Positions 18,252 through 34,638 of a stretch of DNA of 64,000 bases are shown here, piece by piece; the stretch's first letter is position 1; the number at the start of each line of letters is the position of its first letter. This stretch comes from Lysobacterales bacterium. Its GTDB lineage: Bacteria; Pseudomonadota; Gammaproteobacteria; Xanthomonadales; SZUA-5. The stretch spans positions 31,021 to 95,020 of the forward strand of contig JALHMG010000001.1 of the NCBI GenBank assembly GCA_022844135.1. Reading direction: 5' to 3'. Both the position numbers and the translations under genes were made by a program. Under the pieces are notes generated by a model. It saw only the letters and a program-made list of their open reading frames with translations, had not been told where the DNA came from and did no database searches.

Positions 18252-18264
18252 GTTGGTTTCTCGT

Positions 18265-18311
18265 TGTTGACGGTGTCTACATTGGACGCTATCTTGTTGA
18301 CACTGTCAACA
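18265..18311. promoter_or_regulatory. Two palindromic operator sites in the divergent promoter (likely TetR sites)
   Basis: TGTTGACA-C-TGTCAACA (18295-18311, perfect) and TGTTGACG-G-TGTCTACA (18265-18281, imperfect), 30 bp apart. Confidence 0.7.
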
Positions 18312-18326
18312 GCGAGGGTCAGAAAA

Positions 18327-18800
18327 ATGCGTCGAAGTCTGCGTTTTGCCGTCATTGGTGCACTCGGTGCTTGGTTAGCTGGATGCGCCGTGTCGACGCC
18401 GATGCAATGGAAGGATGTGGCGAGCGATGTTCGGGTAGAGATCTCGTTGACCCACGCAATCCTCGATCCGCAAAAACGCACCGCTTTCGACGCCTACACC
18501 GATCAGATTCGATCGCAGCTGGGCAAGCAGCCTGGCCTTGTCGGTCACTCCGTGCGGCGCGAGCTTTTCGGCAACCAAGTTTGGACCTACACCGTCTGGG
18601 CGTCAGCCGCTGATCGACAAGCGTTCGTCAGCTCCGACCTGCACCTGCGCGCGATGCAGCAGGCCGCCCATGCCATCGTCGACATGCGCGTGAGGCGCTT
18701 TACGGTCAAGCGCAACGAAGCTCCGCAATCTTGGGGAGAGGTTCTGATCTGGTTGGATCGTCCGACTGGCGAGGATGCGCTGGACAGTGCGGGACCATGA
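18327..18800 (+). CDS. Lipoprotein with ABM/DUF3291-like dimeric alpha-beta barrel
   Basis: Lipobox LAGC; QPGLVGHS, WTYTVW…AFV.S..H..AM pattern. Confidence 0.65.
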   Translation: MRRSLRFAVIGALGAWLAGCAVSTPMQWKDVASDVRVEISLTHAILDPQKRTAFDAYTDQIRSQLGKQPGLVGHSVRRELFGNQVWTYTVWASAADRQAFVSSDLHLRAMQQAAHAIVDMRVRRFTVKRNEAPQSWGEVLIWLDRPTGEDALDSAGP

Positions 18801-19124
18801 GGCAAGGGTCACAGGCCCAGGCACAGGCAAGAGAATAACGCGCCATTGCCTCCGCACGCGGCAGACTGAACCGACGAGCATTGCCTGCCTCGTTCGACGG
18901 CGTATTTGCTGCAAACCTGCGGTAGACCTTGACTCAAGTGGGGCTTCTAAAGAAAAGCCGCCTCGCAGACCCTTTCATTCAGGCGACCGGATCCCGCTTC
19001 ATCAAGAACGCCAGTACCGCTGAGGTTGCAGACACTGTCGATTGCGTTGCAACTGCGCGGCGTCGCGACCCAGTTCCGCGCGCCGCGCGTGACAATGGCT
19101 TAGCTGAGGCAACAGGGGCGTTGA

Positions 19125-19322
19125 ATGGCCATCGTGCAGAACATCGCGGAGCGGCTGGAACAGGTGATGGAGGTGGTGCGCGAGCAGCACCTGGATGTAG
19201 AAACGGCGGCGCGGGAGTTTGGTTTCCCCTCGCTCGATGCGTTCTTTACGGCGTTCGACAAGCACTATGGCGTGCGCGTCGAAACCGTTTCGCTGAGCAG
19301 CGCCGATGGTGCGCAGCCATAG
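19125..19322 (+). CDS. 65-aa protein resembling a single AraC C-terminal HTH (copy 1)
   Basis: AGGGG RBS; DVETAAREFGFPSLDAFFTAFDKHYG matches the AraC second-HTH pattern. Confidence 0.6.
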   Translation: MAIVQNIAERLEQVMEVVREQHLDVETAAREFGFPSLDAFFTAFDKHYGVRVETVSLSSADGAQP

Positions 19323-19553
19323 CGTTTGCGGAAGACCTGAGAGAAGTAGGACAGGTTGTCGAACCCGCTGGCGTAAGCGACCTCAGACACGCTGCCGCGG
19401 CGCTCGCGGAGCAGCGCCTCGGCGCGCTGCAGGCGATGTTCGCGCAGGATTTCGCTGGGAGTTGCCTCAAGCGTTTGCTTGCAGCGGCGGAACAGGGTAG
19501 CGCGGTCCATGTGCAGCGCATGAGCCAGTTCGGCAACGCCGAAGGTTGGATCA
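19265..19553 (-). pseudogene. Duplicated 3' fragment (AraC domain only) of the hybrid sensor gene at 34350-38273
   Basis: Encodes the same C-terminus (…DPTFGVAELAHALHMDRATLFRR…TVSTRTP*) but is truncated at 19553, where the island begins. Confidence 0.9.
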
Positions 19554-19566
19554 TGAGGCAGTAGTT

Positions 19567-20142
19567 TTAGAGGTCATGATCAAGCTTTGCGCATATTGCA
19601 TGCAAAGCAATTAGGTGAGCCTCTTGGATAAAAGCCGTCCGATGTGATGATGCGACGAAGGTCACATCGCATAGACTGGGGAAGGACGTCTCATTATCGC
19701 CAGTAAACCCGAGGCGAGAAAGCCCGAGATCTCGCGCGGTTTCCAACGCACAGAGTACGTTGCGGGACTTCCCGGACGTCGAGAAGGCAAGCAGCAGGTC
19801 GCCAGGTCGAGCAAAGGTCGAGATCGAGCGAGCGAAGATTTGGTCAAAGCCAAAGTCATTCGACAATGCGGTCAATGCCACTCCGTCGGATCCAAGCGCA
19901 ATTGCTCGAAAGCCCGGCCGCGACGATTCAAATCGAACCGAAATTTCCGCCGCAAAATGCTGGGCCATGGCAAACGATCCGCCGTTTCCGCAGGTGAACA
20001 CCGTGCCTTGAGCTTGGATTGTCCTCTTAATAAGTGCACTCATTCGTACAAGGACGGGTGATGCGTTCAATAGGGTTCGACTTGATTCAACGCTTTGGCT
20101 TAGGTACTTATCAATAACTGAATCCACGACTATCTCCATCAT
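19567..20142 (-). CDS. gmhA: Phosphoheptose isomerase (SIS domain)
   Basis: CGNGGS..MAQHFAAE, SNDFGFDQIFAR, FSTSGKSRNV, IQEAH…H.IC. ATGA overlap with gmhB. Confidence 0.92.
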   Translation of the reverse strand: MMEIVVDSVIDKYLSQSVESSRTLLNASPVLVRMSALIKRTIQAQGTVFTCGNGGSFAMAQHFAAEISVRFESSRPGFRAIALGSDGVALTALSNDFGFDQIFARSISTFARPGDLLLAFSTSGKSRNVLCALETARDLGLSRLGFTGDNETSFPSLCDVTFVASSHRTAFIQEAHLIALHAICAKLDHDL

Positions 20143-20678
20143 ATTATCCCCGCTCTTGTCGAAAATATTGCTCGTCCGATAACATCGGATAAGTCGCTGC
20201 CTGGTGTGTACAAATACGAACCTATGCCTGCCGCAGTTCCCGCTGCGAGGTCGCAAGGCTTATCCCCCACGACAAAGCATTTCGAACGAACCACGAGGTC
20301 TGTCGGACAATGCCGTAAAATCATCCCAGGATTGGGTTTCCGGTCAGGGTGATTGGCAGATCGATATCGCAAGACCGAAGCATCAGGGTGGTAAGGACAG
20401 TACTCAAATCCGTGGATTACGGCTCCTTCGGAGAGCGCCAAACTGGCTAACGCCTGATGGAATGATTGAACTTCCAATTCTGAGCAGAAACCTCGTGCGA
20501 CAGCGGATTGATTACTTACCACAACGATACGCCATCCCTCTTGGTTGAGTCGCTGCAACGCTGCCAATGCTCCGGGCTGCCACTCAATGCGACTGGCGTC
20601 AAAACGGTACACCTGATCCACGATAAGTGTTCCGTCGCGGTCGAGAAACGCGACTGGCTGGGCGAACATGGGCGTCAT
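20139..20678 (-). CDS. gmhB: Heptose-1,7-bisphosphate phosphatase (HAD-IIIA)
   Basis: FLDRDGTL, VVSNQSAVARG, CPYHP, RKPNPGM, VGDKPCD..AG.AAG. Confidence 0.92.
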   Translation of the reverse strand: MTPMFAQPVAFLDRDGTLIVDQVYRFDASRIEWQPGALAALQRLNQEGWRIVVVSNQSAVARGFCSELEVQSFHQALASLALSEGAVIHGFEYCPYHPDASVLRYRSANHPDRKPNPGMILRHCPTDLVVRSKCFVVGDKPCDLAAGTAAGIGSYLYTPGSDLSDVIGRAIFSTRAGII

Positions 20679-20727
20679 TTGTTTTCGTAACTCTTCGAAC
20701 GCCAGTGGGCTTCTGTACCTATCATAC

Positions 20728-20952
20728 TGCTTTTCGCTGAGTTCCTTGGACCCGATGAATTGTGAGGAAACCATTGAGGAAGATGCCAAAGCGAAGCGAG
20801 TTGCCCGCGTCGAAGCGGGTCGAGGTGGCATTGGCGCTGTTGCGCAAGGAAGAGCCAGCGGCGCAGATAGCATGCTGGCACGGAATCAGCGAGCAGACGT
20901 CGTATCGCTGGAAGGACGAGTTAGTTGCTGGCGGCAATGCACGTATGGCCTG
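20728..20952 (+). mobile_element. Truncated, diverged IS3-family left end with partial orfA
   Basis: IRL TGCTTTTCGCTGAGTTCCTTGGACCCG (4 mismatches in 27 vs the neighbouring IS). orfA from 20783 (MPKRSELPASKRVEVALALLRKEEP…) breaks off after ~55 codons. Confidence 0.85.
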
Positions 20953-21012
20953 TGTCTTGCGCTGAGTCCCTTGGACCCGATGGAGTGTTAGTAAACCATC
21001 GAGGACAGGAAG

Positions 21013-21315
21013 ATGCCAAAGCAAAGCGAGTTGCCCGCGTCGAAGCGGGTCGAGGCGGTATTGGCGCTGTTGCGCAAGGAGGAGCCGGCGGTGCAGATTG
21101 CACGGCGCTACGAGATCAGCGAGCAAACGTTGTACCGGTGGAAGGACGAATTCATTGCCGGCGGTAGTGCGCGCATTGAGGGCAAGGATGGCGATTCGTC
21201 GCAGGCTAAAGAGGTAGGCCGCTTGCAGCGCGAGATCGAGACGCGCGAGCAGGTGATCGGTGAGCTGACGATCGCGAACCGCATCCCAAAAAAGCTCTCG
21301 GGCCCGTCCGTCTGA
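21013..21315 (+). CDS. IS3 transposase OrfA (HTH)
   Basis: VQIARRYEISEQTLYRWKDEF HTH, leucine-zipper-like tail, in-frame A AAA AAG heptamer. Confidence 0.9.
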   Translation: MPKQSELPASKRVEAVLALLRKEEPAVQIARRYEISEQTLYRWKDEFIAGGSARIEGKDGDSSQAKEVGRLQREIETREQVIGELTIANRIPKKLSGPSV

Positions 21316-22336
21316 CGCCGGAAGTGCGGGCCATGCTGGTTGAGGAGCAAAAGCAGGCGGCCAAGAAGGAGTCGGCAACGGCGCCACGCTGGAAAGCGGT
21401 GCTGCGAGCCGTGGGTATTCGATTGCCAATGCAATCGGACTTGCGCCGTCGAGCCGGTACCACAAGCCGCCGGAGACGACCAAGCGGCCTCGGCCAGCGC
21501 CCAAGCCCTTGGATGAGGCGCAGCGAGCGAAGGTGATCGAGTTCGCCGAGCGCTATCCGTGGTGGGGCTACAAACGCGTCGCCATCGTCATGCGGCGCGC
21601 TGGGATCGAGGTGAGCAAGAAGTTCGTGCGCGCGGTGTACAAGGCCGAGGGCTTGATGCAGAAGCGGCGGCCGAGCAAAGCGGAGCTGTATCAGAGCGCC
21701 AAGTTGTACGAGCTGCTGCCGACGCGCTGCAATGCGCTGTGGCAAGCGGACGTCACCTACATCCATATTCCCGGCCACGGCTGGTGGTACGCGGTGACGG
21801 TGATCGACTACTACAGCCGCTATCTGCTGGCCTGCCATCTGACCAGCAGCTTCTCGGCAGTCGAGGTCGGCGCCGGGATCGATTTGGCAATGAAGGAAGC
21901 CGAGCGCGTGCATGGGAAACTTGAGCGCATACCGTTCTTAGTGACCGACAATGGCAGCAGTTTTCTGGCGCGTCGATTCCAGGCGCAGATCAAAGACCGT
22001 TTCAAGCACGTCCGGACGCGCTACCGGACGCCCGAGCAGCTTGGGTTATTGGAGCGTTTTCATCAGACGCTCAAGCGCGAAGAGGTGTATTGGCAGCTCT
22101 ACGACAACCCGCAGGATGCACGAACCAAGCTAGATGCATTCCGCCAGCGATACAACGACATCCGGCCGCACTGGGCGCTGCAGCCGGCCATCGGGGGCGA
22201 CGTTGTGACGCCCGCCGACGTCTATGTTCGCAACGAAGCTATCGTGTTGCCGAAGTGGCAAGGATGGGCAAAGGCGGCAAAGAAAAAGCTTGACGATGCC
22301 ATGGCGCAGGATGCGCAGTTGAGGCAAGCCGCGTGA
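21288..22336 (+). pseudogene. IS3 transposase OrfB (DDE integrase core) with an extra frameshift near 21411-21437
   Basis: The -1 frame after the slippery site stops at 21536. The DDE part (WQADVTY…TVIDYYSR…TDNGSSF…LERFHQTLKRE) is in a third frame, entered at ~21437 (GLAPSSRYH). Confidence 0.8.
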
Positions 22337-22419
22337 ACCGGTGCGGTCTCACAAAAACCGGTTGGGCGGGTCCAAGGGAATTGGGAGGCAAGACATCAGG
22401 TCGGTTCCAAGCGCGGTGG

Positions 22420-22545
22420 TCACCGACACGGGCAGCGCGTTGATCGAGACTTTGTTCGGCAGAGCTGTGGCGAGAGGAGTGTCGTTGGCAAATCGCTCAG
22501 GACGACGTTTGAAAGCGACATCCAGAGCCGCCGCGCATGTTGACG
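22420..22545 (-). pseudogene. C-terminal remnant of another IS3-type transposase
   Basis: AAALDVAFKRRPERFANDTPLATALPNKVSIN resembles the recalled 'LDAAYAAHPERF…P.LP..VWIN' tail of some IS3-family transposases. Confidence 0.6.
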
Positions 22546-22695
22546 GCGATGGCAATATCAAACGCAGACTGCCAATGAACGCCTGCCTAAGGTCGGCGCC
22601 GGGAGGGTCACGGGAGCGAAGTAAGCGATGACTCTGTATAAGACGGGTTGCCCTGATTAACGTCAGTTACAATGGCTGCTTAAGGGAACCTTCAG

Positions 22696-23631
22696 TTGGA
22701 GCGAGCGAGGATTTGCGTGACATCTTTTCGGAGCAAGCCTTTTTTCGTTGTAGGTGATGTCATGTTGGACAGATTCGTTCATGGACAGGTGACGCGCCTG
22801 TCGCCCGAGGCGCCCGTCCCCGTCCTTACGGTCTCGGGGCACGAGGATGTTCCAGGTGGAAGTGCAAACGTTGCCGTCAACTGCCGCGCGCTGGGACGAG
22901 AAGTGAGGCTCTTCGGATTGGTAGGACAGGATGCAGAGGCCACAATTCTCACTGATGCCCTAGAGTCCAAAGGTATAAGAACGCGGCTCTTTCCAACCGC
23001 AGCACCGACCATCTTAAAAACCCGACTGATTGATGGAAGAAGGCACTTGTTTCGCTTTGATCTTGAGCAGCGCTTTGTTCCTGGCGATGCTGCTGCGCTT
23101 GCTCGGGCTGTCTTCGCTGAATTAAATGAGGCAGGCGCCGTGCTCCTGTCGGACTATGCCAAAGGAACCTTGGCTGAGCCGCAAGCATATATTCGCGCTG
23201 CCCGAAGCGCGGGATTGCGAATATGCGTTGATCCCAAACATGTGCCGTTTGATAGGTATTTCGGGGCACACGTTTTGACCCCCAATGCCATTGAGTTCGA
23301 AGCCGCGACAGGCACAATAGTGGGTGGTTCCGGCTTTAATGATATCGCAGCCGCTCTATGCGCATCGCTCTCTCTTGAGGCACTGCTTGTTAAAGCGGGC
23401 AATCGAGGTATGTACCTGATTCAACCATACAAGCCGGTTCGACACATCGAGGCGCGCCCGGTCGTCGCAGTCGACGTGACCGGTGCGGGTGATGTAGTCC
23501 TCGCGGTCCTGTCGGATGGCTTGGCACGCGGACTGAGCTACGAAGACGCCGCTGTGCGCGCAAATTCAGCAGGTGCCATATCGGTAACGCGCAGAGGAAC
23601 TGGGGTGGTGGCAAATCATGAACTTGACTAG
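22696..23631 (+). CDS. hldE: D-glycero-manno-heptose-7-phosphate kinase (HldE/RfaE domain I, PfkB fold)
   Basis: VGDVMLDRF..G…RLSPEAPVPV, PGGSANVA, TILKTR, SDYAKG, DPK, TPN..EF, DVTGAGD. TTG start uncertain. Confidence 0.92.
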   Translation: MERARICVTSFRSKPFFVVGDVMLDRFVHGQVTRLSPEAPVPVLTVSGHEDVPGGSANVAVNCRALGREVRLFGLVGQDAEATILTDALESKGIRTRLFPTAAPTILKTRLIDGRRHLFRFDLEQRFVPGDAAALARAVFAELNEAGAVLLSDYAKGTLAEPQAYIRAARSAGLRICVDPKHVPFDRYFGAHVLTPNAIEFEAATGTIVGGSGFNDIAAALCASLSLEALLVKAGNRGMYLIQPYKPVRHIEARPVVAVDVTGAGDVVLAVLSDGLARGLSYEDAAVRANSAGAISVTRRGTGVVANHELD

Positions 23632-24148
23632 CGCCGAAATCTTGCGAAACAAAGCTTTTAACGAGATTGAGATTGCCAGAAAAGCTGGAAAGCGGGTCGT
23701 CTTCACCAACGGTTGCTTCGATCTTTTGCACCCCGGTCATGTGAGAAACCTACAAGAAGCACGCTCGCTAGGCGACTGCTTGGTCGTCGGCTTAAATACT
23801 GACGAGTCCGTTGCTCGATTAAAGGGCAGTAATCGCCCTATTCTGCCCCTCAACGCCCGAATTGAGATCCTCTCCGCGCTTTCCTGCGTGAACTGGGTAA
23901 TACCTTTTGGCGATCAAGCTGACGACACGCCCAAGAAATTGATCAGCGAAATAATGCCACATGTTCTCGCGAAAGGTGGGGATTATGAGATGACAGAGAT
24001 TGTGGGCGCCGACACCGTGACTGCAGGCGGCGGTGAAGTAGTTCGTCTAACGTACCATCACGATTGGTCCACGACCAGCTTAATTCGCGCGATCAAATCC
24101 GGGAGCGCTATTCGGCGCGTTCTTCACCCAGCGGATTACGAGAGCTAA
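23618..24148 (+). CDS. hldE: Heptose-1-phosphate adenylyltransferase (HldE/RfaE domain II)
   Basis: VFTNGCFDLLHPGHV, VVGLNTDESVARLKG..RP, KGGDY, STT. Confidence 0.92.
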   Translation: MNLTSAEILRNKAFNEIEIARKAGKRVVFTNGCFDLLHPGHVRNLQEARSLGDCLVVGLNTDESVARLKGSNRPILPLNARIEILSALSCVNWVIPFGDQADDTPKKLISEIMPHVLAKGGDYEMTEIVGADTVTAGGGEVVRLTYHHDWSTTSLIRAIKSGSAIRRVLHPADYES

Positions 24149-25139
24149 TAATGCGATTCAGAGGGTAATACAATTTTCGTGTCGGATATCCTTCCTTATC
24201 CACACACTTGGCACAAAGCGGAATACCACTTAGCGAATGGCTCGCGTGCGCACCCCTGAATCGGCGCAAATTCTCGCTATTCCAAATTTCACGCAAAGAC
24301 TGGTTATTTACGTTTCCGAGTACTTGTTTGCCGTCATAATCGAAGCAACAGGGTACGACACGCCCATCCCACAGCACAGTTAAGGATGTCCACGGTTTGT
24401 CGCAAACAAAATCAGGCGGCTGAATCTCATGAACCCGCAGCGATTTTATCCGTTCGTTTGTATTATCCCACGCTACATAACGCTTGACCTTCACTCTGTC
24501 AATGCCTGGCCAATTCTTCCACTTACGCAACCAATCATTCACTTCGTGGCGGTTCTCTCCCTGCTCAACGATTTGTAGGATGACTCGAGGCCGGGATCTA
24601 CCCGCCTCGGCCTTGTAATCCAGGAGCTTCCTCAACCTTGATTCGGCTAATTCGAGATTGCCGGCGGCACGCCCGCGCACTCGCTCATTGGTCGCCGCCG
24701 TCACGCCATCGAGAGAAAGAACTAGCTCTTCGAGTCCGCTATCTACCAAAGAAGCAATCCGATGATCAGTAAGGAGTATCGGATTAGCGGATAGAAATCC
24801 CTTGACCCCAGACTGGGAAGCATAATTCAGGATTCTTGCGATATCCGGATGAAGCAAGCTGTCTCCGAAATGATGAAGCAGGACGGATCGAGTCGAATAT
24901 CGAGCTTCGTCGATGATCTTCTTGAAGACATCGAATTCCATGAATCCCAATGGTCGCGTCATCTGATTGGTGCGGGGGCACATCTCGCAAGTCATTGGGC
25001 AGTGATTTGTCAACTCGATCTGGAAGACTACTGGGTAACCTCCAGGCTCGATGCGCTGCCAGTTGTAATAGAACTGAAGAACCTCCGCGTTCACCCATTT
25101 GGCGAACGTGTCAAAGAATCGCGCATCCACTAGTCCCAC
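24108..25139 (-). CDS. Radical SAM enzyme with SPASM/twitch domain
   Basis: ELTNHCPMTCEMCPR (CxxxCxxC); CDKPW…WDGRVVPCCFD…LGN…W…CAKC. Confidence 0.92.
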   Translation of the reverse strand: MGLVDARFFDTFAKWVNAEVLQFYYNWQRIEPGGYPVVFQIELTNHCPMTCEMCPRTNQMTRPLGFMEFDVFKKIIDEARYSTRSVLLHHFGDSLLHPDIARILNYASQSGVKGFLSANPILLTDHRIASLVDSGLEELVLSLDGVTAATNERVRGRAAGNLELAESRLRKLLDYKAEAGRSRPRVILQIVEQGENRHEVNDWLRKWKNWPGIDRVKVKRYVAWDNTNERIKSLRVHEIQPPDFVCDKPWTSLTVLWDGRVVPCCFDYDGKQVLGNVNNQSLREIWNSENLRRFRGAHASHSLSGIPLCAKCVDKEGYPTRKLYYPLNRIISSRNPLGEERAE

Positions 25140-25993
25140 TCCCCCTCTGCGTTCCTCAGCAGATTACCACCGACGCCAGCAATAGAGCACGAAACCAGCG
25201 TAAGGCGCTTAGCCTCGTACATCGCTACGGTTGCTGCGACACCAGCATTTAGAGATTCAAGTCCCAGGTGGCCTCCCGGAATACTTACTAGTTCGCTGCA
25301 GTGCTTTCGTGTCCTTTGTCGCAAACCTTCCCCCTCGGCTCCAATGACAAATGCCAGCTTCTCATGGGATACAAGATCCGGAAGTATTCTGCTGCCTCTC
25401 TCATCCAGCCCGACCACATGGTATCCGATGTCCCGAAGTGTCTCGATGGCTAATACAAGATTAGCAACGCAGTAAAATTCAATTAACTCGGCGCCGCCGA
25501 CGGCGTACCTGACTACTTCTGCAGTAGGTGTCGCCGCTCGATGTCGCATATATATTATCGCATCAAATCCGAAAAAGGCCGCTGATCGAATTATTGTTGC
25601 CAAATTCTGAGGGTTCGAAACCTGATCCAGCAACAGGACTGATTTTGCGTTAACAAGATCTTGCAAGTCCCTCTCAACGCCTATAATCCGCGGATTGGCA
25701 AAGCAGAAGATGCCTTGGTGGTTGTCTTCGCCAACGAGTTGTCCAGCCCTCCTGAACTCTGGCCATGAAAGAAAAGCCACAGGTATATTGTGCCGCTGAG
25801 CAAGGGAAATCGCTTCTTGATGGTAGTCGGGCTTGCCCGCGAGCACGAGCTTTAGGACGTCGCCAGGACGCATCATCAGAGCGGCACGAACCGAATGCTT
25901 ACCATAAATTTTTTCTTTTCCACTACGTTCCGAATCGGTATCGGCCCCAGGCACGGAGTTCGCGTCGGTTCGCGGCTGAAACTGCTTGCGCAT
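25130..25993 (-). CDS. TrmH/SpoU-family RNA 2'-O-methyltransferase, RlmB-like
   Basis: IYGKHSV, LDQVSNPQNLATIIRSA, IGAEGEGLRQRTRKHCSELVSIP, ESLNAGVA. Confidence 0.88.
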   Translation of the reverse strand: MRKQFQPRTDANSVPGADTDSERSGKEKIYGKHSVRAALMMRPGDVLKLVLAGKPDYHQEAISLAQRHNIPVAFLSWPEFRRAGQLVGEDNHQGIFCFANPRIIGVERDLQDLVNAKSVLLLDQVSNPQNLATIIRSAAFFGFDAIIYMRHRAATPTAEVVRYAVGGAELIEFYCVANLVLAIETLRDIGYHVVGLDERGSRILPDLVSHEKLAFVIGAEGEGLRQRTRKHCSELVSIPGGHLGLESLNAGVAATVAMYEAKRLTLVSCSIAGVGGNLLRNAEGEWD

Positions 25994-26191
25994 GACTGTA
26001 TGCTTCTCAAAGTTTGCACTACGATGCCGAAAAGGACGAGCCGCCAAAGCGGTGAGAATTTCTCTTCTAACGTTCGTCGGGTGAACTGCTTAGCCTACTG
26101 CAACATCCGCATCGCCGCAAGGGCTGGATGCGAGTTGAGCAGACTAGGCCAAGAGAAATCCCTCCGATAATGTATCTCGACGTTTTCAACA

Positions 26192-27565
26192 TTGCAAGAG
26201 GACTCAATTGAAGTTATCGTTCTGGAACATTGTGCCAGCCCCAGGGTTGTGACGGTTATGGATAGGAAGGAATGTCAAGCATTGTGGGAGCGCTGCCAGA
26301 CGGAAAAATCAAAGATGTTTGCCGAGAATGGCAGCGAGAAGTTCTCACAGATCAGGGCAGCCAAGGTCTGGAATTATTGGGCTCTTTCAATGGTGAGCGA
26401 GCGCAAATCCCTTGAGCGTCAGGGGCGGTTTTTCGGGCGCATGCGCTGGCTTTGGGAAAGCCAAGCTCGTGTCGACTTCAGTGATTCGGTTTTCAGGCGG
26501 GCTTTGCGTGACCGAGCTCGAAGTGACCGTCCGCATTCCGAACGGAAATTTTCGCTGGCATCGTCGGGGGAGGCCATTGATTTCCGTTGGTTCGTTTTCC
26601 CTGGTTTAGTTGATTTTTCAAGATGCGCTTTCGATTCCTGGGTTTGGTTTGGAGCGACCAGATTCTGCGGACGCACCGAATTCCGCGATTGCAATTTCGC
26701 GGATTGGGTAGGATTTCTTAGTAGTCAAGCACAAGAATCACCTTGCGAGTTCCATGATATTTGCCGGTTCGATGGCTGCACCTTTTCTGATGATACCTAC
26801 TTCAGAAGTGCTGTTTTTCACGGTTTAGTATATTTCAGCGGCTGCGACTTCGCGGGAAAGGCGGATATGTCCCTCGCTCAATTCAACAAAGGCGCGAGTT
26901 TTTTCGGAGCGCGGTTTAATCAGGGAGTTATCTTAAATGGCGTCGCTTTTCGGCGAGTTCCGGACTTCTCCTTTGCGACTTTTAGTGTCGCACCATCAAT
27001 TCCGAAGAAGGTTGTGATGGAAGGTCTTGGAAAGCCGATCAATTACGTGAGAGAGAAGGAGGGCATGCAGCCCGTTCTAGAGGAATGTTACCGTGCGCTT
27101 AGAAGGATTGCCTCGGACAGCCGTGATTGGGGGGCGGAGCGCGATTACCTTGTGCTGGAACAGGAGTCCCGGGCTGATGCGTCGTTGACTTTTCGGGTTT
27201 TGCTTCGCTGCTTCGCACTAGGTTGCGATTACGGACGAAGTGCGGTTCGTCCATTGTGTTTTTGGTTCATAAATGCATTAGTGTTCTCGGGAGTATACGA
27301 GGCTATGCGGTATTCGATTGGGTCATTCACCTGGCGTGGTTTTTTCCGTGAGAGTTTTTACATCGCCGTTTGCCGGAACTTTCCGGTTCTCGGGCAAGCA
27401 AATTCACGCGCTTATGATACGGCAGTAACCGGTCTCCTGGGGAGCTCGGATGTTCGAATGGCATGGTTTGATTTCCTTGTAGTTCTGCAGAGCACGCTCG
27501 CTGCGATATTTTTGTTCTTGGTTGCTATGTGTATTCGAAACGCACTGCGCTATGACAGCGAATAG
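26192..27565 (+). CDS. Pentapeptide-repeat protein with C-terminal membrane helices (start uncertain; ATG at 26258 possible)
   Basis: Repeated F-x4-F pattern (VDFSRCAF…FGATRF…FRDCNF…FDGCTF…FRSAVF…FSGCDF…); DYGRSAVRP followed by hydrophobic segments. Confidence 0.75.
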   Translation: MQEDSIEVIVLEHCASPRVVTVMDRKECQALWERCQTEKSKMFAENGSEKFSQIRAAKVWNYWALSMVSERKSLERQGRFFGRMRWLWESQARVDFSDSVFRRALRDRARSDRPHSERKFSLASSGEAIDFRWFVFPGLVDFSRCAFDSWVWFGATRFCGRTEFRDCNFADWVGFLSSQAQESPCEFHDICRFDGCTFSDDTYFRSAVFHGLVYFSGCDFAGKADMSLAQFNKGASFFGARFNQGVILNGVAFRRVPDFSFATFSVAPSIPKKVVMEGLGKPINYVREKEGMQPVLEECYRALRRIASDSRDWGAERDYLVLEQESRADASLTFRVLLRCFALGCDYGRSAVRPLCFWFINALVFSGVYEAMRYSIGSFTWRGFFRESFYIAVCRNFPVLGQANSRAYDTAVTGLLGSSDVRMAWFDFLVVLQSTLAAIFLFLVAMCIRNALRYDSE

Positions 27566-27592
27566 CACGATCTCGGCGAAGAACAGCTGATA

Positions 27593-28525
27593 CTAAAGGG
27601 ATTCGAGAAAGCGCAGGAGATTCGGCATGTGTTCGCCCCAGGCAATGACACTGGGATCATGCCGCACGCACGGTTTGGCACTAGCTTCGGCCAGTGCGCC
27701 AATGAAGGCAATTGTGTCCTCTGGCGTCGTGACCACATTCGGTAGGCCGAGAATGTGGCTGTGTTGGAGTTTGTTTACAACAACCATTTGAGTGCCTGAG
27801 GCATATTGATCAGATACCACTCCGCTGGCATAGGGCGACGATGGTGCGGCGGTCCAACACCAAAGCAGATCGCATGCTCGAAGGCGGTCAAAACGGTCTC
27901 GATTGCTCCATTGCGAGTACGCAAGATGAAGTCGACTGGGATATAAGGCTGCTATCGAGGCTAATTCTTCGAGCACGCCCGGGGAGGGTTGCTTCCATGG
28001 GCTCAAGACTAGGTAGATTGCGACGGCGGGGATCTGATGGAGGATTGCCTCACTGATTCTCGGGTATTCGCGTTCATATCTGAGAAACCCGTTCGTTCCA
28101 ATTAGAAATCTGTCCAAGGGTAATCCAAACTGGGTGCGTAATCTCCTTCGCGTCGTGTTTTCCGAAAAAGTCTCTGACGGATGAGGGAACCAATGACCGC
28201 GCTTTGCGCCTTCAATGAGCGAGGGTACCATAGCCACTATCGCAGCAACGGAGTCGTAAAGCGCCCTCGCATCATCGGAGTGTGGCATTAGTACAACGGG
28301 TTGCCGACAATCCATAATAAAATCATGTGCACTGTTTATTGGTAATACTTCCCCATGGTAATGAAGAAAAACGATATCGGCGCGGTCGGCGCGGAGTTCT
28401 GCACTACATTTCACTTTCGCACCAGCGCGGCGAAGTGCTGTCGCCATTCGTTTAGAGAAATAACCGATGCCACAACGATCATTTAGAGTGGTAGCGATCT
28501 GGAGTATGTGTAGGGGACGACGCAT
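27593..28525 (-). CDS. Glycosyltransferase-like protein (GT-B/GT4-like)
   Basis: N-terminal HILQI…CGIGYF…A.ALR and central IGTNGFLRYER. Last gene of the six-gene operon. Confidence 0.6.
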   Translation of the reverse strand: MRRPLHILQIATTLNDRCGIGYFSKRMATALRRAGAKVKCSAELRADRADIVFLHYHGEVLPINSAHDFIMDCRQPVVLMPHSDDARALYDSVAAIVAMVPSLIEGAKRGHWFPHPSETFSENTTRRRLRTQFGLPLDRFLIGTNGFLRYEREYPRISEAILHQIPAVAIYLVLSPWKQPSPGVLEELASIAALYPSRLHLAYSQWSNRDRFDRLRACDLLWCWTAAPSSPYASGVVSDQYASGTQMVVVNKLQHSHILGLPNVVTTPEDTIAFIGALAEASAKPCVRHDPSVIAWGEHMPNLLRFLESL

Positions 28526-28540
28526 GGGAATGGTGAATAG

Positions 28541-29353
28541 TTACGTTTCGTTGAAGGGATTGCATGGTCTGCCTTTTGCGTCGCGGACTGTCAGTTCGTG
28601 AGCAATCGGCGTAACACTAACTTCACGACGCCTCCAAAAAACGTCCAGGTCCGATCCACTGGCGATCTGGTCGGAAGTGTAGTTGGAGGCGAATGTGTAA
28701 CGATCGGAACTTGTTTTCGCGCTGCTGTTTTTCAACTGGAGACGATAAGGGTCCAGTCGACTTTGTTCGCACAAGCGCCATTCTGTACGCATTTCAACGC
28801 AGCTTGGAATGTTGATGTTGAGGCATGACACGTTTGGATTTAATCCCCTTAAGGCCAACCGCGCCAATTGGGAGGTCACTGTCATCGCGGGCTTCCAAAC
28901 CTCAGGATCAAAGGTCTTGCCGAAGTGCGAGTCATCTTCTTCCATGCTTACTGCCATACTAGGCACTCCGTGGCTGCCTGCCTGGGCGGCCGCTGCTATA
29001 GTTCCGCTTAAGTGTACGGTGTACCCAAGGTTCTCGCCGGCGTTTATCCCACTTATACATAGATCTGGTGGCTTCGAAACAAGTTCCAGAAGTGCAATGC
29101 TAATAACTTGCGATGGGGCTCCGGCGATGGTGTAACCTTTAACCATCCCTTCTGATAGATGAAAATTGTGGGGCGAAACATTGCCGATGTCGGGTCCGCG
29201 AAGGAAGGCGCGTGACATGCATGTCTGATTAACACGTGGGCAAACAACCAACACCTCGCCAAGTGTTTGAGCTACTTCAATCGCGGCGCGAAGGCCAAAC
29301 GAATCTGGACCGTCGTCGTTGGTTACGAGGATGTAGGGTGGTCTAGTTGACAT
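28541..29353 (-). CDS. surE: SurE-family 5'/3'-nucleotidase
   Basis: ILVTNDDG, SGINAGENLG…SGTIAAA, NINIP, VSVTPI. Confidence 0.9.
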   Translation of the reverse strand: MSTRPPYILVTNDDGPDSFGLRAAIEVAQTLGEVLVVCPRVNQTCMSRAFLRGPDIGNVSPHNFHLSEGMVKGYTIAGAPSQVISIALLELVSKPPDLCISGINAGENLGYTVHLSGTIAAAAQAGSHGVPSMAVSMEEDDSHFGKTFDPEVWKPAMTVTSQLARLALRGLNPNVSCLNINIPSCVEMRTEWRLCEQSRLDPYRLQLKNSSAKTSSDRYTFASNYTSDQIASGSDLDVFWRRREVSVTPIAHELTVRDAKGRPCNPFNET

Positions 29354-30353
29354 GATTCGCGTTCTGGTTTTGGGATGTGGCTTTAGCGAATGCGTTAACG
29401 ACGTCCTTGGTCGTGATCGCTTCTAAGCCTGGATCGATGGTCTCGCCGTATGGGTTGTGTTCTTGTCCTTTCCAGATCGTGATGTGTTCGGTGCAGGTTT
29501 TAGGTGGCCCCCAACAACCGGGCGAGACAGGACCGAACAGTGTCACCGCGCTCGTTCGGGTTGCCGTTGCTAAGTGCGCGACACCACTGTCAACAGACAG
29601 AACGAGTCCAGCGGCGGCGACGCGATGAAGCAAGTCGCAAGCCGTCGTATTGAGTGAAACGCTGGTAACGTCGACTCCCGCTTGGTTGGCAATCGTGAGA
29701 GCACGATCTCGCTCCCGCAGCGTGCCTGTTAGCTGCAACTTCCATCCCATGGCCTGGACTTTTCTTGCCACCTCCGTCCAACGATCTTGCGGCCAAAGGC
29801 GAGCCGGGCTTCCGGCGCCAGCGTGCAGAATTACGGGTGCATTTCTGTCCAGAGGACGCGGAGTACGCAGAAAGAGGTCGTTGGCGTCGAGATCGATACC
29901 CAAAAGGCCAAGCAGGCGAGCCCATCGGGAGAAAATGTGATCGGCAAAATCAAGGAACGGAGCACTTGATGTTTCGGGTATCGCGGGGTGACGGTAGCTC
30001 AATATTTGACTCGGTCGGAGTGCTCGGAGCAAGGGCAACAGCTCATGACCGGGAGTCCTTAGGGAAACGATTAGCTCAACCCTTTCTTTCAGCTCCAATA
30101 CGGAAGCCAGTACATTTGAATCAGCGGCTCGGTGATCTGTGGGACCAATTGTGTCTGGATTCGAGCGATCGGAGAGGATTAAGTCGCACAGATTCAAATA
30201 TCCAGCAAGATCCTTGAGCCACGACGGGCACGTCATTATTATCTTCTGGGTTGGGTAGGTTCGACGCAAAGCGCGCATTGCGGGAATCCCCGTCATCAGG
30301 TCGCCGAGCCCATTGTGTCGTAAAACCAAGATAGCGCCCTTTCGGCCCATCAT
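29343..30353 (-). CDS. Glycosyltransferase family 9 (heptosyltransferase-like)
   Basis: LVLRHNGLGDLMTGIPAMRALRR, LHAGAG…RLWP..RW, VDSGVAHLA.A…TLFGP. Confidence 0.88.
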   Translation of the reverse strand: MMGRKGAILVLRHNGLGDLMTGIPAMRALRRTYPTQKIIMTCPSWLKDLAGYLNLCDLILSDRSNPDTIGPTDHRAADSNVLASVLELKERVELIVSLRTPGHELLPLLRALRPSQILSYRHPAIPETSSAPFLDFADHIFSRWARLLGLLGIDLDANDLFLRTPRPLDRNAPVILHAGAGSPARLWPQDRWTEVARKVQAMGWKLQLTGTLRERDRALTIANQAGVDVTSVSLNTTACDLLHRVAAAGLVLSVDSGVAHLATATRTSAVTLFGPVSPGCWGPPKTCTEHITIWKGQEHNPYGETIDPGLEAITTKDVVNAFAKATSQNQNANHVN

Positions 30354-30354
30354 G

Positions 30355-31473
30355 CTAGTCACTCAGCCTCGATTTGTAGGGCGCCAAACATGCTTGGCGA
30401 ATGATTTGTGCAACCTGATGGGCTCCTCGGCCAGAGTTATGACTGACAGTCCTGCGCACGTGTCCAGCCATTTGTAACGGGGATAGTCCAGAGCGTAAAG
30501 ACTCCGTTATTTCGGCCCGCTTGGCAGGATCCTTGCGAGCCTCCGCCAAAGCGCTGTAGATTGCATTCACTACCTTTTCCTCACCTGCAGGTCGTAACGC
30601 TTCTATCATTCCGGTCGACAGCACGCTATCCGGCCAATTGAGTGCGGAGCACTCGGGATCCACAAACAGGCGCGTATTTAGGATCTGACTCAGATTTTGT
30701 GGCGGCAACAAGATGGACGGCAAGCCTATTTGCATTGCTTGGAAGATAGTCGTGCTGCCCGGTGAGGTGAGTAGAAGGTCACAAGTCCTTAGCAACTGCT
30801 CAAAGACATGACCGCTCTGCACACCGACGACAACGTCATTTCCGAAGCGCTGCCGTATATTGCTTAACCAGTCGGACCCGATGTTGCCGCATACGCCAGC
30901 GATGGAAACCGAAGCCGCCTCAAGCGCGCCAAGCACGCCAGGCAAGACAAGATCGACATAGTCCAGAGTTCCACAAAGGTGGCTATGCACACCTCCCACG
31001 TTCACTACAACTCCGGCGCCGCCTGTGCGACGCCTCGGCTGCGGAACGATAGGCTCCACCCAACAAAAGTCGCGTCTATTTCGAAGGCACGAGGCTAGTG
31101 GCAAAATCTCGTCCGGGTATCGCTGTGCGCAATAACATACCGTGGCGTTAGGCAACGGGACCTCATTTCCATTAGCCCACAGGTACGGCAAACTATCAAC
31201 ATAAACAACAGGTATTCCAAGCGATCCGAGGTAATTCGCTCGTTCTGGGTCGTTAATCACGAGCGCCGCGTTCGCGTCAGCAAGGGGCGCATCAACAAAC
31301 TCGTGATTGAAGTCGTCGAGCGCTAGTATTTGTGTCGACATCGGCGGCGGTTCATGAAGTATGATCCGGTGCGGTGGGAGGTGCTTGAGAATTAAGCGAA
31401 GTTTGCCCAGACTGCCCCAGCCGAAGTGACAAGCAGAAACTACCAGCATCGCGCTGTTGCGTGTTGAACCCAT
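30355..31473 (-). CDS. blsD: Cytosylglucuronate (CGA) synthase-like glycosyltransferase (BlsD/MilC-like)
   Basis: N-terminal FGWGSLGKL motif as recalled for CGA synthases; YVDSLPYLW, VVNVGG, SPGSTT, LPPQNLSQ. Operonic with the BlsE-like gene and an aminotransferase. Confidence 0.65.
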   Translation of the reverse strand: MGSTRNSAMLVVSACHFGWGSLGKLRLILKHLPPHRIILHEPPPMSTQILALDDFNHEFVDAPLADANAALVINDPERANYLGSLGIPVVYVDSLPYLWANGNEVPLPNATVCYCAQRYPDEILPLASCLRNRRDFCWVEPIVPQPRRRTGGAGVVVNVGGVHSHLCGTLDYVDLVLPGVLGALEAASVSIAGVCGNIGSDWLSNIRQRFGNDVVVGVQSGHVFEQLLRTCDLLLTSPGSTTIFQAMQIGLPSILLPPQNLSQILNTRLFVDPECSALNWPDSVLSTGMIEALRPAGEEKVVNAIYSALAEARKDPAKRAEITESLRSGLSPLQMAGHVRRTVSHNSGRGAHQVAQIIRQACLAPYKSRLSD

Positions 31474-31477
31474 GGAA

Positions 31478-32722
31478 TTAATCTCGTGTCCCGGCGAAGT
31501 GTCGCCACACCTTCAGTGTTCCTTCGCAGCTCATCTCGGCCTCTTGCATCGGAAGCCAGGGCCCTGTTTCCAATTCAAAAAGCCGTGAGTGGGCGTCGCG
31601 CGCCACAGGACAATCATCTGCGGTCATCGCTGCCGAATTTTTGCGGAGATAACTGGTTAGCCAGTCTATTCGAAACAAAGGCCGATGCGGGATGCGGCAG
31701 CTTATATTTTCGGCGGAAATCGCCTTTACCAAATCGTCGCGTATTGATCGCGCGCCATCAGGGACAAGAACAGGGCATTTAAAGTAGACACTCTCGCCCC
31801 ATTCCGGTTCTTTGATCGTCAGAAGCCCATGACTCAAGAAAGATCGACCATAATACCGGCCGGCGTTCTGGCGATCCGAGATCTCTTCCGTCAGTCTGGA
31901 TAATCCATCCAGACCGATTATTGCTGGGAATTCTGCCATTCGGCAACTGAAACCTAATCTCTCATAGTCGTCCCAGTCGGGGCCTTTGCCGTAGTTAGAC
32001 AAAGTCCGTAATGTGTTGTAACGTGAATGGTCGGCGCAGATAACCATTCCGCCCTCACCACAAGAAATATGCTTTCGTACTGAAAATGCGAAAGCGGCGT
32101 AGTCGCCAAACGTGCCTACCCTGCGTCGTCGTACTGTGGCGCCAAACGCTTGCGCACAGTCTTCGATCAAAGTGAGGCCTTCGGTTGAGCACAACGTTGA
32201 AATACTGTCCATATCTGCAGGATAGCCCCAGAAATGAACCACCAAGACGGCTTTGGTGCGCGGACTAATTAGTTCGCGCGCCCGAGTCGCCGACATGGTT
32301 AACGATTGAGGTTCAACATCGCAGATCACGGGTATGGCGTTGTTTTGCACGATAGCGGAAGCTGCCGCTACGAAGCAAAACGCAGGTACAATCACCTCGT
32401 CCCCCGGGCCGATACCTGCCGCTGAGAGCGCTAAGCTCAGCGCTGACGTCCCAGAATTCACGGAGACCCCGCGGATGTCCGCTCCGAAAAATGCAGCGAA
32501 TTCGGTTTCGAATCTACGTGCCCATGGCCCTGAGTAATACAAGGACAGGAGACCAGAATCCATCATTTCAAGAACCCGGGCCCGAGCAGTCGTGGATATG
32601 CGGACTCCTGTGGGCAAAGGCAGCTGGCGAGTTGGCGTACCACCGAATATTGCCAGCGGATTCTGGTTTGTTTTGCGCATACCATTAGGCATTGGTGATT
32701 TCCGAAATTTCAATATTCCCAT
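31478..32722 (-). CDS. DegT/DnrJ/EryC1/StrS PLP aminotransferase (BlsH-like by context)
   Basis: NSGTSAL, PAFCF.A, VHFWG, IEDCAQAFG, FSVRKHISCGEGG (PLP lysine). Confidence 0.92.
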   Translation of the reverse strand: MGILKFRKSPMPNGMRKTNQNPLAIFGGTPTRQLPLPTGVRISTTARARVLEMMDSGLLSLYYSGPWARRFETEFAAFFGADIRGVSVNSGTSALSLALSAAGIGPGDEVIVPAFCFVAAASAIVQNNAIPVICDVEPQSLTMSATRARELISPRTKAVLVVHFWGYPADMDSISTLCSTEGLTLIEDCAQAFGATVRRRRVGTFGDYAAFAFSVRKHISCGEGGMVICADHSRYNTLRTLSNYGKGPDWDDYERLGFSCRMAEFPAIIGLDGLSRLTEEISDRQNAGRYYGRSFLSHGLLTIKEPEWGESVYFKCPVLVPDGARSIRDDLVKAISAENISCRIPHRPLFRIDWLTSYLRKNSAAMTADDCPVARDAHSRLFELETGPWLPMQEAEMSCEGTLKVWRHFAGTRD

Positions 32723-33684
32723 GGGTCAACATTTCCCACATCATCAATCCGATTGCTGTAGGCGGCCGCTGTCGTGGAACAGCCTTTGCAGGTTCGATGT
32801 CCGTCGGTACGGTAATAGCGAACATGCTCATTCCATTCTGAATTGGTCAGCGACCACGTGTCATCGTTCTGGACGACAGCGCCGTCGGTTGCGTCTTCAC
32901 CAGTTCGATGCGGAAGCAAACTGCAGCCAAAAGCCTTTTTGATTTTTGGGTCTATATATATAACATTCCCGACGACATTACAGAGGCTGCCGGTGGGTTT
33001 CGGACATACTCCAGCGTCGAAGAACAAATCCTGGGCTGAGCGGCTCTCGCCGTAAAAGCGCAGACCCATTGGAACCAAGAGGCCTGGCTCAGTGTGATAA
33101 AGGCGGTCGCACGAATCAATCACAGCTTGCCGATCAGGATAGACGATTGGGCGGTCAAGCTTTAACGCGGTTAGCTCCCATTGATTGATTCCCACATCGG
33201 TGAAGAGTTTTTGTAATTCGAGCATATCTTGATAGTTGTGAGGTCCAACCACAGTATTTACTCGCGTGCGGATGCCTAGTTCTTTAGCCTTGCTGATCCC
33301 GTCGATACAACGGTCGAATAGGCCCGGAAATCCTCTTATTTTGTCGTGATTATCCCGTGTGCCGTCAATGCTGACAACGATCTGATCCAGGCCGCTGGCG
33401 GATAGTTCTGAAATTTTGGTTGGTAAGGAAGCTCCGTTTGTAATTATGGAGCTCTTCAATTCGAATTGCTTTATAATCCTCACGAATTCTGAGATTTCCA
33501 GGTGCAAAAGTGGCTCTCCACCTGTCAGACGAACGTACTCGACCCCAACTCCTTTGGCCTTGTCTAGTATCGCGAACAAATCACTCTTACTAAATCTATA
33601 TTGATCCTTGGAGCGAGCAAAGACGCACATGAAGCAATCTGCGTTACATGCCTCCAGGATTCGTATGAACAAGTACTTTTTCAT
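32710..33684 (-). CDS. blsE: Radical SAM cytosylglucuronate dehydratase/decarboxylase (BlsE/MilG-like)
   Basis: YLFIRILEACNADCFMC.FA.S.D.YRF and YVRLTGGEPL.H match recalled BlsE N-termini closely; C-terminal Cys for an auxiliary cluster. Confidence 0.78.
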   Translation of the reverse strand: MKKYLFIRILEACNADCFMCVFARSKDQYRFSKSDLFAILDKAKGVGVEYVRLTGGEPLLHLEISEFVRIIKQFELKSSIITNGASLPTKISELSASGLDQIVVSIDGTRDNHDKIRGFPGLFDRCIDGISKAKELGIRTRVNTVVGPHNYQDMLELQKLFTDVGINQWELTALKLDRPIVYPDRQAVIDSCDRLYHTEPGLLVPMGLRFYGESRSAQDLFFDAGVCPKPTGSLCNVVGNVIYIDPKIKKAFGCSLLPHRTGEDATDGAVVQNDDTWSLTNSEWNEHVRYYRTDGHRTCKGCSTTAAAYSNRIDDVGNVDPWEY

Positions 33685-34200
33685 TATTTCCCGACTTCTG
33701 AGCATTGGTGTAGTTGGCAAATTGCTAATCGACTTGCTCAGATGATCTGAAAGGCTGAGCGATGTTTCTTCGTTTCCATGGTCTGATCGAGTTCTGGCGA
33801 GAGCTTGCGTTGCGATTCGCGCTTACGCTTAGATGAGCACTTGAGCTGCACCGAATGCTCGCTCAATCGGAAGCGTTTTCGCTATCTGGGAATTCTCGCA
33901 AATTCTGACTTTGGCTTTCTGCTTAGCTGACCGGCGCCGTCCTGGGGTTGAGACCTCAATGGAGGCCACTTTCTACGCTGGGCATCGGTCAGTTGCACTT
34001 GGCTAGGTGCGGGGGATGTCTGGTACGAGTCGTGTCTGGCGCGCATCGATGTGCCGAGCTTCTTGTTCTACCTGCGATCCACTGATGCGACGCAGTGCTG
34101 TTATCGTCGTTGGGAACGTCTTCGACCGCGTTGCAAAAACTGAAGATTGGCAACCAACGCCGTATTGCGCGCGCGACAATTCGTCAGTGGTGGTTCGGAA

Positions 34201-34638
34201 GGGCGTTGAATGGCCATCGTGCAGAACATTGCGGAGCGGCTGGAACAGGTGATGGAGGTGGTGCGCGAGCAGCACCTGGATGTAGAAACGGCGGCGCGGG
34301 AGTTTGGTTTCCCCTCGCTCGATGCGTTCTTTACGGCGTTCGACAAGCACTATGGCGTGCGCGTCGAAACCGTTTCGCTGAGCAGCGCCGATGGTGCGCA
34401 GCCATAGCGTTTGCGGAAGACCTGAGAGAAGTAGGACAGGTTGTCGAACCCGCTGGCGTAAGCGACCTCAGACACGCTGCCGCGGCGCTCGCGGAGCAGC
34501 GCCTCGGCGCGCTGCAGGCGATGTTCGCGCAGGATTTCGCTGGGAGTTGCTTCAAGCGTTTGCTTGCAGCGGCGGAACAGGGTAGCGCGGTCCATGTGCA
34601 GCGCATGAGCCAGTTCGGCAACGCCGAAGGTTGGATCA
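34201..34638. repeat. 438-bp direct repeat, copy 2 (right boundary of island)
   Basis: Matches 19116-19553 with 2 mismatches; lies within the intact hybrid sensor gene's 3' end. Confidence 0.97.
34210..34407 (+). CDS. 65-aa mini AraC-type HTH protein (copy 2)
   Basis: Protein identical to 19125-19322; overlaps the sensor gene's 3' end convergently by 58 nt. Confidence 0.6.
   Translation: MAIVQNIAERLEQVMEVVREQHLDVETAAREFGFPSLDAFFTAFDKHYGVRVETVSLSSADGAQP

Follow-up and report, generated by a model that had tools for sequence, protein, structure and literature searches.

A cluster-dedicated RlmB-like SpoU methyltransferase on a heptose-linked, BlsE-type nucleoside island as a candidate for ribosome self-protection

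The window analysed here, a 64,000-nt stretch of Lysobacterales bacterium DNA, contains a putative nucleoside biosynthetic island with a gene for an RlmB-like SpoU/TrmH 2'-O-methyltransferase, referred to below as SpoU. On sequence evidence, the gene is a recurrent and cluster-dedicated part of a distinct nucleoside cluster family that spans several phyla. Comparative genomics favors ribosome self-protection as the best explanation for its presence: SpoU would be a cluster accessory that methylates the P-loop of 23S rRNA in the producer, a reading to which we give about an even chance.

The cluster family was searched in genomes and metagenomes with three queries, namely a conserved 310-aa protein, a radical SAM/SPASM enzyme and BlsE. 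Its members combine relatives of BlsE, BlsD and the sugar aminotransferase with a GT9 glycosyltransferase, the radical SAM/SPASM enzyme and the 310-aa protein. Ten clusters have both the BlsE, aminotransferase and BlsD core and sufficient flanking sequence; two loci, L069 and L056, represent a distant variant without the BlsD and aminotransferase core and are not part of this count. SpoU proteins of the same subfamily are encoded in nine of the ten heptose-type clusters (the window, L041-44, L030, L053, L054, L060, L066, L074/L050 and L075), and the only cluster without one is L049 from Streptomyces sp. MMS24-I2-30. The hosts of the SpoU-bearing clusters are labeled as, or resemble, Gammaproteobacteria, Alphaproteobacteria, Actinomycetota, Acidobacteriota and Desulfobacterota; the labeled metagenome-assembled genomes (MAGs) belong to Mycobacteriaceae (L030), Vicinamibacterales (L074 with L050) and Desulfatitalea (L075). 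Among these clusters, the biosynthetic proteins are 41-69% identical. As a control, 76 canonical BlsE-containing actinomycete loci were inspected, and neither a SpoU nor an elongation factor P (EF-P) gene was found within 10 kb in any of them; two annotated canonical bls loci carry MFS exporters instead. Because SpoU recurs in nine of ten related clusters and in none of the 76 canonical loci (Fisher's exact test, p = 2e-11), we assign the gene to the nucleoside cluster.

Gene order varies among the clusters. SpoU lies upstream of BlsE in L060, L074 and L075, and between the 310-aa gene and a BlsM-like gene in L030; in L053 and L054 it follows the radical SAM/SPASM gene. In L066 it adjoins a terminal transposase and sits between the transposase and the biosynthetic genes. 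In L030, about 50 residues encoded in frame before SpoU (L030:4484-4700) match the N-terminus of a class I methyltransferase that is intact in L050 and L057, and this segment looks like a deletion remnant fused to SpoU. Literature searches on EF-P in biosynthetic clusters, on hikizimycin and hikosamine biosynthesis and on cytosylglucuronic acid with heptose returned nothing on this cluster family.

The SpoU open reading frame of the window extends over 26047..25130 on the reverse strand. Translation from the ATG at 25993 gives a protein of 287 residues, with a start that agrees with the N-terminus of the closest homolog (P0002). The initial annotation had read a SpoU methyltransferase with an RlmB-like motif at this position, and both elements hold: the motif GAEGEGLRQRTRKHCSELVSIP is present, SpoU_methylase (PF00588) matches residues 119-259 with 110.2 bits (E 1e-31, gathering score 29.7), and SpoU_sub_bind (PF08032) matches residues 29-101 with 29 bits. 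The top NCBIfam model is that of RlmB (TIGR00186), at 141.4 bits and below its curated cut-off of 160.15. The protein consists of a disordered segment (residues 1-20), an L30e-like RNA-binding domain (~27-101), a SPOUT catalytic domain (~119-263) and a 22-residue C-terminal tail that its relatives do not have. N130, R136, E220, S247 and N249 show no variation when SpoU is aligned with E. coli RlmB and 38 homologs, and they match the RlmB motifs; all three SpoU-TrmH motifs are present, comprising the catalytic Arg and the Asn/Glu/Ser/Asn residues of the S-adenosylmethionine (SAM) site.

An AlphaFold2 model of SpoU built with 39 homologs has a pLDDT of 86 and a pTM of 0.82, with residues 1-20 and the C-terminal tail disordered. 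Its top Foldseek match is E. coli RlmB (1GZ0; TM 0.86-0.89, root-mean-square deviation 2.2 Å over 244 columns), which is also the best match in a sequence comparison with the PDB (95.6 bits; others at most 40). The next Foldseek matches are RlmR (Um2552), NshR/TsnR (Am1067), AviRb (Um2479) and YsgA, rRNA enzymes of the same architecture with other targets. The gene is intact and, with the invariant catalytic residues and the RlmB-like fold of the model, looks like that of an active RlmB-type RNA ribose 2'-O-methyltransferase. A promoter and terminator scan of 23900-27700 gave counts no greater than in shuffled sequence and no attenuator-like leader upstream of SpoU, and a permissive Rfam search of 18000-35500 returned zero matches.

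SpoU is an extra copy, as had been proposed from the window alone. The host assembly (99.8% complete) contains four TIGR00186 matches, and the best of these is a canonical RlmB on another contig, with 229.7 bits for TIGR00186 and 283 bits for the E. coli-type model NF008386. The island protein is 36-37% identical to this host RlmB, and its gene stands in DNA of foreign GC content; it is therefore not the housekeeping rlmB of the genome. The closest relatives of SpoU (50-66% identity) come mostly from Alphaproteobacteria, represented by Rhodospirillales and Rhizobiaceae-like MAGs, with the remainder from Poribacteria, Acidimicrobiia, Gemmatimonadota and Dormibacterota. Members of this subfamily score 132-177 bits for TIGR00186, on both sides of the cut-off, and the cluster-linked copies of L075 (177 bits) and L066 (171 bits) lie above it. 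Of the 81 columns conserved in the subfamily, E. coli RlmB and the host RlmB depart from the consensus in 32-35. In three alphaproteobacterial genomes, a higher-scoring RlmB (171-183 bits) occurs together with a subfamily member of 145-157 bits; no RlmB-like match in Algihabitans scores above its subfamily member. A plasmid collection searched with SpoU yielded only housekeeping rlmB, at no more than 36% identity.

In most sister clusters, SpoU is accompanied by a second component of translation. A full-length EF-P gene is present in at least six of the ten clusters (L041, L053, L054, L060, L066 and L075), as well as on the truncated contigs L055 and L057, and all five EF-P genes scanned pass the efp equivalog TIGR00038. 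The tip loops read KTGKSG in L041, NPGKGQ (the actinobacterial type) in L053 and L055, and PGNLRA in L054, L057 and L060. A full-text literature search for EF-P within a biosynthetic gene cluster as self-resistance found no published precedent. A divergent efp/spoU pair is also conserved with no cluster nearby (L012-L017, L019, L024, L045-L047 and L081:7258-8912) in chromosomes of marine Rhizobiaceae/Hyphomicrobiales-like MAGs; its EF-P departs from the usual PGKG motif in having an unusual KTGKSGAYNQVEMKN loop. Since the L019 genome contains another, higher-scoring RlmB, the pair may constitute an accessory efp2-rlmB2 module. The cluster was also considered as an EF-P glycosylation pathway with EF-P as its substrate. 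We rejected this reading, given that the tip residue varies among clusters (K, or PGNLRA), that a BlsM-like gene occurs in sister clusters (Pfam Nuc_deoxyrib_tr; in blasticidin synthesis, this family releases the nucleobase) and that the Streptomyces version of the cluster encodes an antibiotic-kinase homolog.

L041, the cluster closest to the window, has the order 310-aa gene, efp (-), SpoU (+), FkbM-type methyltransferase gene (-) and radical SAM/SPASM gene. In the window, an orphan pentapeptide-repeat gene stands in place of efp and the FkbM gene is gone; its loss explains the new C-terminal tail of SpoU and the overlap with the radical SAM gene. The coupling of SpoU to the second radical SAM gene that the initial annotation pointed out is real in that stop and start overlap (SpoU stop TAG 25132-25130; radical SAM/SPASM start GTG 25139 or GTG 25130, for an overlap of 10 nt or 1 nt), but it is specific to the window, since in L041 the FkbM-type gene lies between the two. 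The radical SAM/SPASM enzyme was rejected as an RNA-modifying partner of SpoU: it is found in the SpoU-less loci L049, L069 and L056, and the adjacency is not conserved. It is probably biosynthetic.

Other clusters hold further candidates in the same region. L049, which has neither SpoU nor EF-P, carries a gene of the APH(6)/hydroxyurea-kinase family (L049:10994-12055 (-); PF04655 76 bits, NF012171 93 bits) between the 310-aa and radical SAM/SPASM genes. L060 encodes, divergently to SpoU, a homolog of the RlmA/TlrB family of 23S rRNA guanine-N1 methyltransferases (L060:529-1299 (-); Zn_ribbon_RlmA and methyltransferase domain, NF008300 138 bits). These two genes suggest that the slot collects the kinds of gene that producers use for self-protection.

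Taken together, SpoU and EF-P point to the P site of the ribosome, at the pair that C75 of the bound tRNA forms with G2251. RlmB forms Gm2251 in the 23S rRNA P-loop (PMC9508554); EF-P aligns the CCA end, and its modified tip is close enough to the ribose of C75 for a hydrogen bond (PMC11514478). The cytosine of blasticidin S docks into the P-loop, in bacteria by Watson-Crick pairing, and the drug pushes C75 of the P-site tRNA out of place (PMC8287960); the cytosine pocket is shared by amicetin (PMC12856912). On this basis, EF-P and the RlmB-like enzyme would have a common site of action only a few angstroms across, where blasticidin-type drugs bind as well, and this coincidence supports ribosome self-protection. 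SpoU would then be an active RlmB-type ribose 2'-O-methyltransferase, with 23S rRNA as its presumed substrate, that moves along with a mobile, heptose-linked, BlsE-type nucleoside cluster as one of its functional accessories. The product of the cluster would be a P-site-binding nucleoside. By methylating the P-loop, at G2251 or a close neighbor, the enzyme would shield the producer's ribosomes, or keep them working, at the P site of the peptidyl-transferase center, with resistance or tolerance as the outcome. There is precedent for such a role in TsnR/NshR and AviRb, SPOUT 2'-O-methyltransferases of the same structural clade that act as producer resistance enzymes (PMC9508554). The idea of P-site self-protection had already been raised for this gene, and it gains from the recurrence in clusters, from EF-P in most sister clusters and from the kinase in the L049 slot; EF-P provides an independent clue, as it does not depend on the earlier idea. 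The idea loses strength in that all core enzymes except BlsE are only distant relatives of the bls proteins.

A more far-reaching version of this proposal is that the RlmB-like P-loop methyltransferase and a dedicated EF-P form a hitherto undescribed two-part ribosome self-protection module against a new class of heptose-linked nucleoside inhibitors. Such inhibitors would occupy the site of the C75-G2251 pair formed by the P-site tRNA; a change to the P-loop, made by the methyltransferase, would be one half of the defense, and EF-P, pressing the CCA end back into position, the other. The stand-alone efp/spoU pairs of marine Rhizobiaceae-like genomes, with their KTGKSG EF-P loop, would be orphan immunity cassettes in non-producers. 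We regard this version as unlikely on the present data.

Several observations weigh against self-protection by P-loop methylation. P-site binding by the product is an extrapolation, because the BlsD-like and aminotransferase genes are related only distantly to blsD and blsH. If the enzyme only makes Gm2251, which the host RlmB already does, a steric block is hard to see. SpoU shares with producer-resistance methyltransferases its location inside the cluster and its co-inheritance, but its subfamily does not occur only with the cluster: 29 of its 31 genome loci have no cluster within 10 kb, and most are chromosomal. A search for diagnostic substitutions common to the cluster-linked copies found none, and thus no sign of a new specificity. 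The copies are also polyphyletic in the tree, which could reflect repeated capture of a neighboring housekeeping efp-rlmB pair. The window SpoU has evolved faster than its L041 sister (42 versus 16 unique changes, p = 0.0006, with L045 as the outgroup), which could mean adaptation to a gammaproteobacterial ribosome or, adversely, relaxed constraint. Finally, the window island, including 33721-34200, has no efp and no BlsM-like gene of the nucleoside 2-deoxyribosyltransferase family.

The acceleration of SpoU is shared by the GT9 protein of the window (32 versus 12 unique changes relative to its L041 ortholog, p = 0.003), while change in the aminotransferase, radical SAM/SPASM and BlsD-like proteins is symmetric between the two lineages. 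In the tree, the SpoU proteins of the window and L041 are sisters (100/96) nested in an alphaproteobacterial clade beside the efp-paired L045; other cluster copies fall near Longimicrobium or Poribacteria sequences or in the unresolved base. Repeated recruitment, or replacement by lineage-matched copies, would account for this pattern, which favors a need for ordinary RlmB-like activity at least as much as a new target. A BlsM-like gene is present in L041, L030, L049, L054, L057, L060 and L066, and no remnants of efp, BlsM or FkbM methyltransferase genes were found in the window island, even at E = 1. With no BlsM-like gene on the island, a host enzyme has to supply the free base if the pathway of the window is active.

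The target need not be a new one. SpoU could confer tolerance by the ordinary function of RlmB, making Gm2251 or helping assembly of the P-loop and H80, with the drug still able to bind; the cluster's own SpoU copy, along with EF-P, would raise or secure the supply of both in any host that it enters and keep ribosomes under drug stress at work or in assembly. The cluster-linked copies are typical of their subfamily: they keep nearly all residues conserved in the non-cluster members and share no specificity changes, although they deviate from the consensus at a median of 5 positions compared with ~1.5 in non-cluster copies (Mann-Whitney p = 4e-4, uncorrected for phylogeny). Some, such as those of L075 and L066, score above the RlmB equivalog cut-off. 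The earlier suggestion of a target other than G2251 accordingly finds no support in the sequences. The EF-P copies are canonical and matched to their lineage, with an actinobacterial loop in L053/L055 and an alphaproteobacterial type in L041, and the polyphyletic SpoU copies stand beside sequences of similar lineages. Against tolerance by ordinary function, the window host already has a canonical RlmB, and the three alphaproteobacterial genomes with both a subfamily member and a higher-scoring RlmB hint at non-redundancy. We know of no evidence that RlmB dosage changes drug sensitivity. This explanation appears fairly unlikely.

A role in relation to the product may also be lacking altogether. 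SpoU may be a housekeeping rlmB-like gene, once paired with efp, that was captured from a donor chromosome as the island formed and now decays slowly in its present host. Its closest relatives belong to the divergent efp/spoU pair in alphaproteobacterial chromosomes without the cluster (L045, L012-L019), its branch in the window is accelerated, and the window has lost efp and altered the SpoU C-terminus. Against this, the gene persists in nine of ten clusters despite many rearrangements and across phyla, and it occurs in none of the 76 canonical loci. The L066 gene sits between the biosynthetic genes and the terminal transposase, and the window gene is intact with all catalytic residues kept. 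We therefore consider simple capture improbable. It is very unlikely that the enzyme methylates something other than 23S rRNA, be it a tRNA (perhaps close to its CCA end), a protein (EF-P, for instance) or a nucleoside intermediate of the pathway: the SPOUT clade acts on tRNA and rRNA, one SPOUT enzyme has a protein substrate (PMC9508554) and SpoU often adjoins efp, but every top match, by sequence or by structure, is a 23S rRNA enzyme with the same N-terminal domain, the clusters have separate small-molecule methyltransferases (FkbM-type or class I), and the window and L030 have SpoU without efp.

Formally, and judged by sequence, SpoU is a member of neither the RlmB equivalog nor the TsnR/NshR or AviRb families. 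RlmB is closest in fold and chemistry: E. coli RlmB (YjfH, the G2251 2'-O-methyltransferase) has the same L30e-like N-terminal domain, SPOUT knot and catalytic motifs, but SpoU is only 30-33% identical to it, belongs to a distinct subfamily and is a second copy on a mobile biosynthetic island. TsnR/NshR and AviRb are closest in genomic logic, as ribose methyltransferases encoded inside the cluster of a ribosome-targeting product in the producers of thiostrepton, nosiheptide and avilamycin. They fall in the same clade of N-terminal domain-SPOUT enzymes (Foldseek E ~1e-15), yet SpoU lies well outside both families (36.3 bits for NshR/TsnR NF000477 against a 425-bit cut-off; 20.7 for NF000035 against 500; 37.8 bits for AviRb 1X7O). 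Their targets are in the GTPase center or H89/H91, whereas the presumed target of SpoU is the P-loop. Producers of elfamycins use resistant EF-Tu copies as cluster-borne immunity. These resemble EF-P and the RlmB-like enzyme in being a second housekeeping translation component within a cluster, with the difference that EF-P and RlmB would not be the direct target of the drug.

The blasticidin S/arginomycin-type clusters of Streptomycetaceae (blsD, E, F, G, H, M) have a close BlsE homolog in common with the window family (46-51% identity), while the BlsD-like, aminotransferase and, in sister clusters, BlsM-like genes are more distant. They have MFS exporters and peptide-ligase genes of their own. 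The window family, unlike these clusters, has ADP-heptose genes, GT9, a second radical SAM/SPASM enzyme, SurE and the 310-aa protein.

Known resistance to blasticidin-type nucleosides involves deamination or acetylation of the drug, or its export, and to our knowledge neither rRNA methylation nor a factor-based mechanism has been described for P-site nucleosides of this type. If SpoU or its EF-P partner protects ribosomes, this would open a new route to resistance at the spot where the ribosome is most conserved, and the partnership with EF-P in sister clusters is the most novel lead. The combination of BlsE, GT9, radical SAM/SPASM, RlmB-like and EF-P genes would then provide a genome-mining handle for unexplored, phylum-spanning nucleoside clusters, and the RlmB-like subfamily, which some Alphaproteobacteria have in addition to canonical RlmB, would gain its first phenotype. 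Should SpoU only make Gm2251, it would still be a clean case of a housekeeping rRNA-modification gene retained on a mobile biosynthetic island.

The genes of the island and the EF-P genes of the sister clusters are collected in the table. That SpoU lies inside an island, as first described, is borne out by base composition and by repeats: the GC content is 0.52 at the SpoU locus, 0.51-0.56 across the island block and 0.63 in the flanks, and perfect direct repeats of 300 nt bracket the island.

Table. Features of the island in the window and EF-P genes of sister clusters
Feature	Position	Strand	Remark
Left direct repeat copy, 300 nt	19116..19415	.	Perfect repeat
GmhA	~19567-20178	-	ADP-heptose pathway
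GmhB	20139-20873	-	ADP-heptose pathway
IS3-family transposase (rve)	21509..22336	+	Inserted between gmhB and hldE
Split HldE, heptose kinase part	22696-23631	+	
Split HldE, adenylyltransferase part	23618-24148	+	
Radical SAM/SPASM enzyme of the cluster	24108..25139	-	Start overlaps SpoU stop
RlmB-like SpoU/TrmH 2'-O-methyltransferase, 287 aa	25130..25993	-	Pfam, NCBIfam and structure matches, AlphaFold2 model
Divergent intergenic region, SpoU / pentapeptide-repeat gene	25994..26191	.	No recognizable promoter, terminator, leader or Rfam element
Orphan pentapeptide-repeat protein (PF13576), hydrophobic C-terminal part	26192..27565	+	At EF-P position of L041
Conserved 310-aa protein, no Pfam domain	27593..28525	-	Marker of heptose-type cluster family
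SurE-family nucleotidase/phosphatase	28541..29353	-	
GT9 (heptosyltransferase-family) glycosyltransferase	29343..30362	-	
BlsD-like cytosylglucuronate-synthase relative	30355..31473	-	TIGR04467 208 bits, under 300-bit cut-off
DegT/DnrJ/EryC1-family sugar aminotransferase	31478..32722	-	
BlsE-like radical SAM enzyme	32710..33720	-	TIGR04466 387 bits, cut-off 400
Right direct repeat copy, 300 nt	34201..34500	.	Within 3' end of host 1307-aa hybrid sensor kinase/AraC gene
EF-P gene	L041:7306-7869	-	
EF-P gene	L053:11025-11630		
EF-P gene	L054:2299-2847		
EF-P gene	L060:12444-13010		
EF-P gene	L066:17057-17632		
EF-P gene	L075:2570-3133		

The pentapeptide-repeat protein is essentially without homologs in a search of 5.8 billion proteins, the best match being 28% identical. 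On the 5' side of gmhB, also within the island, 20732-21176 forms an imperfect tandem duplication with units of ~225-230 nt that are 85-86% identical.

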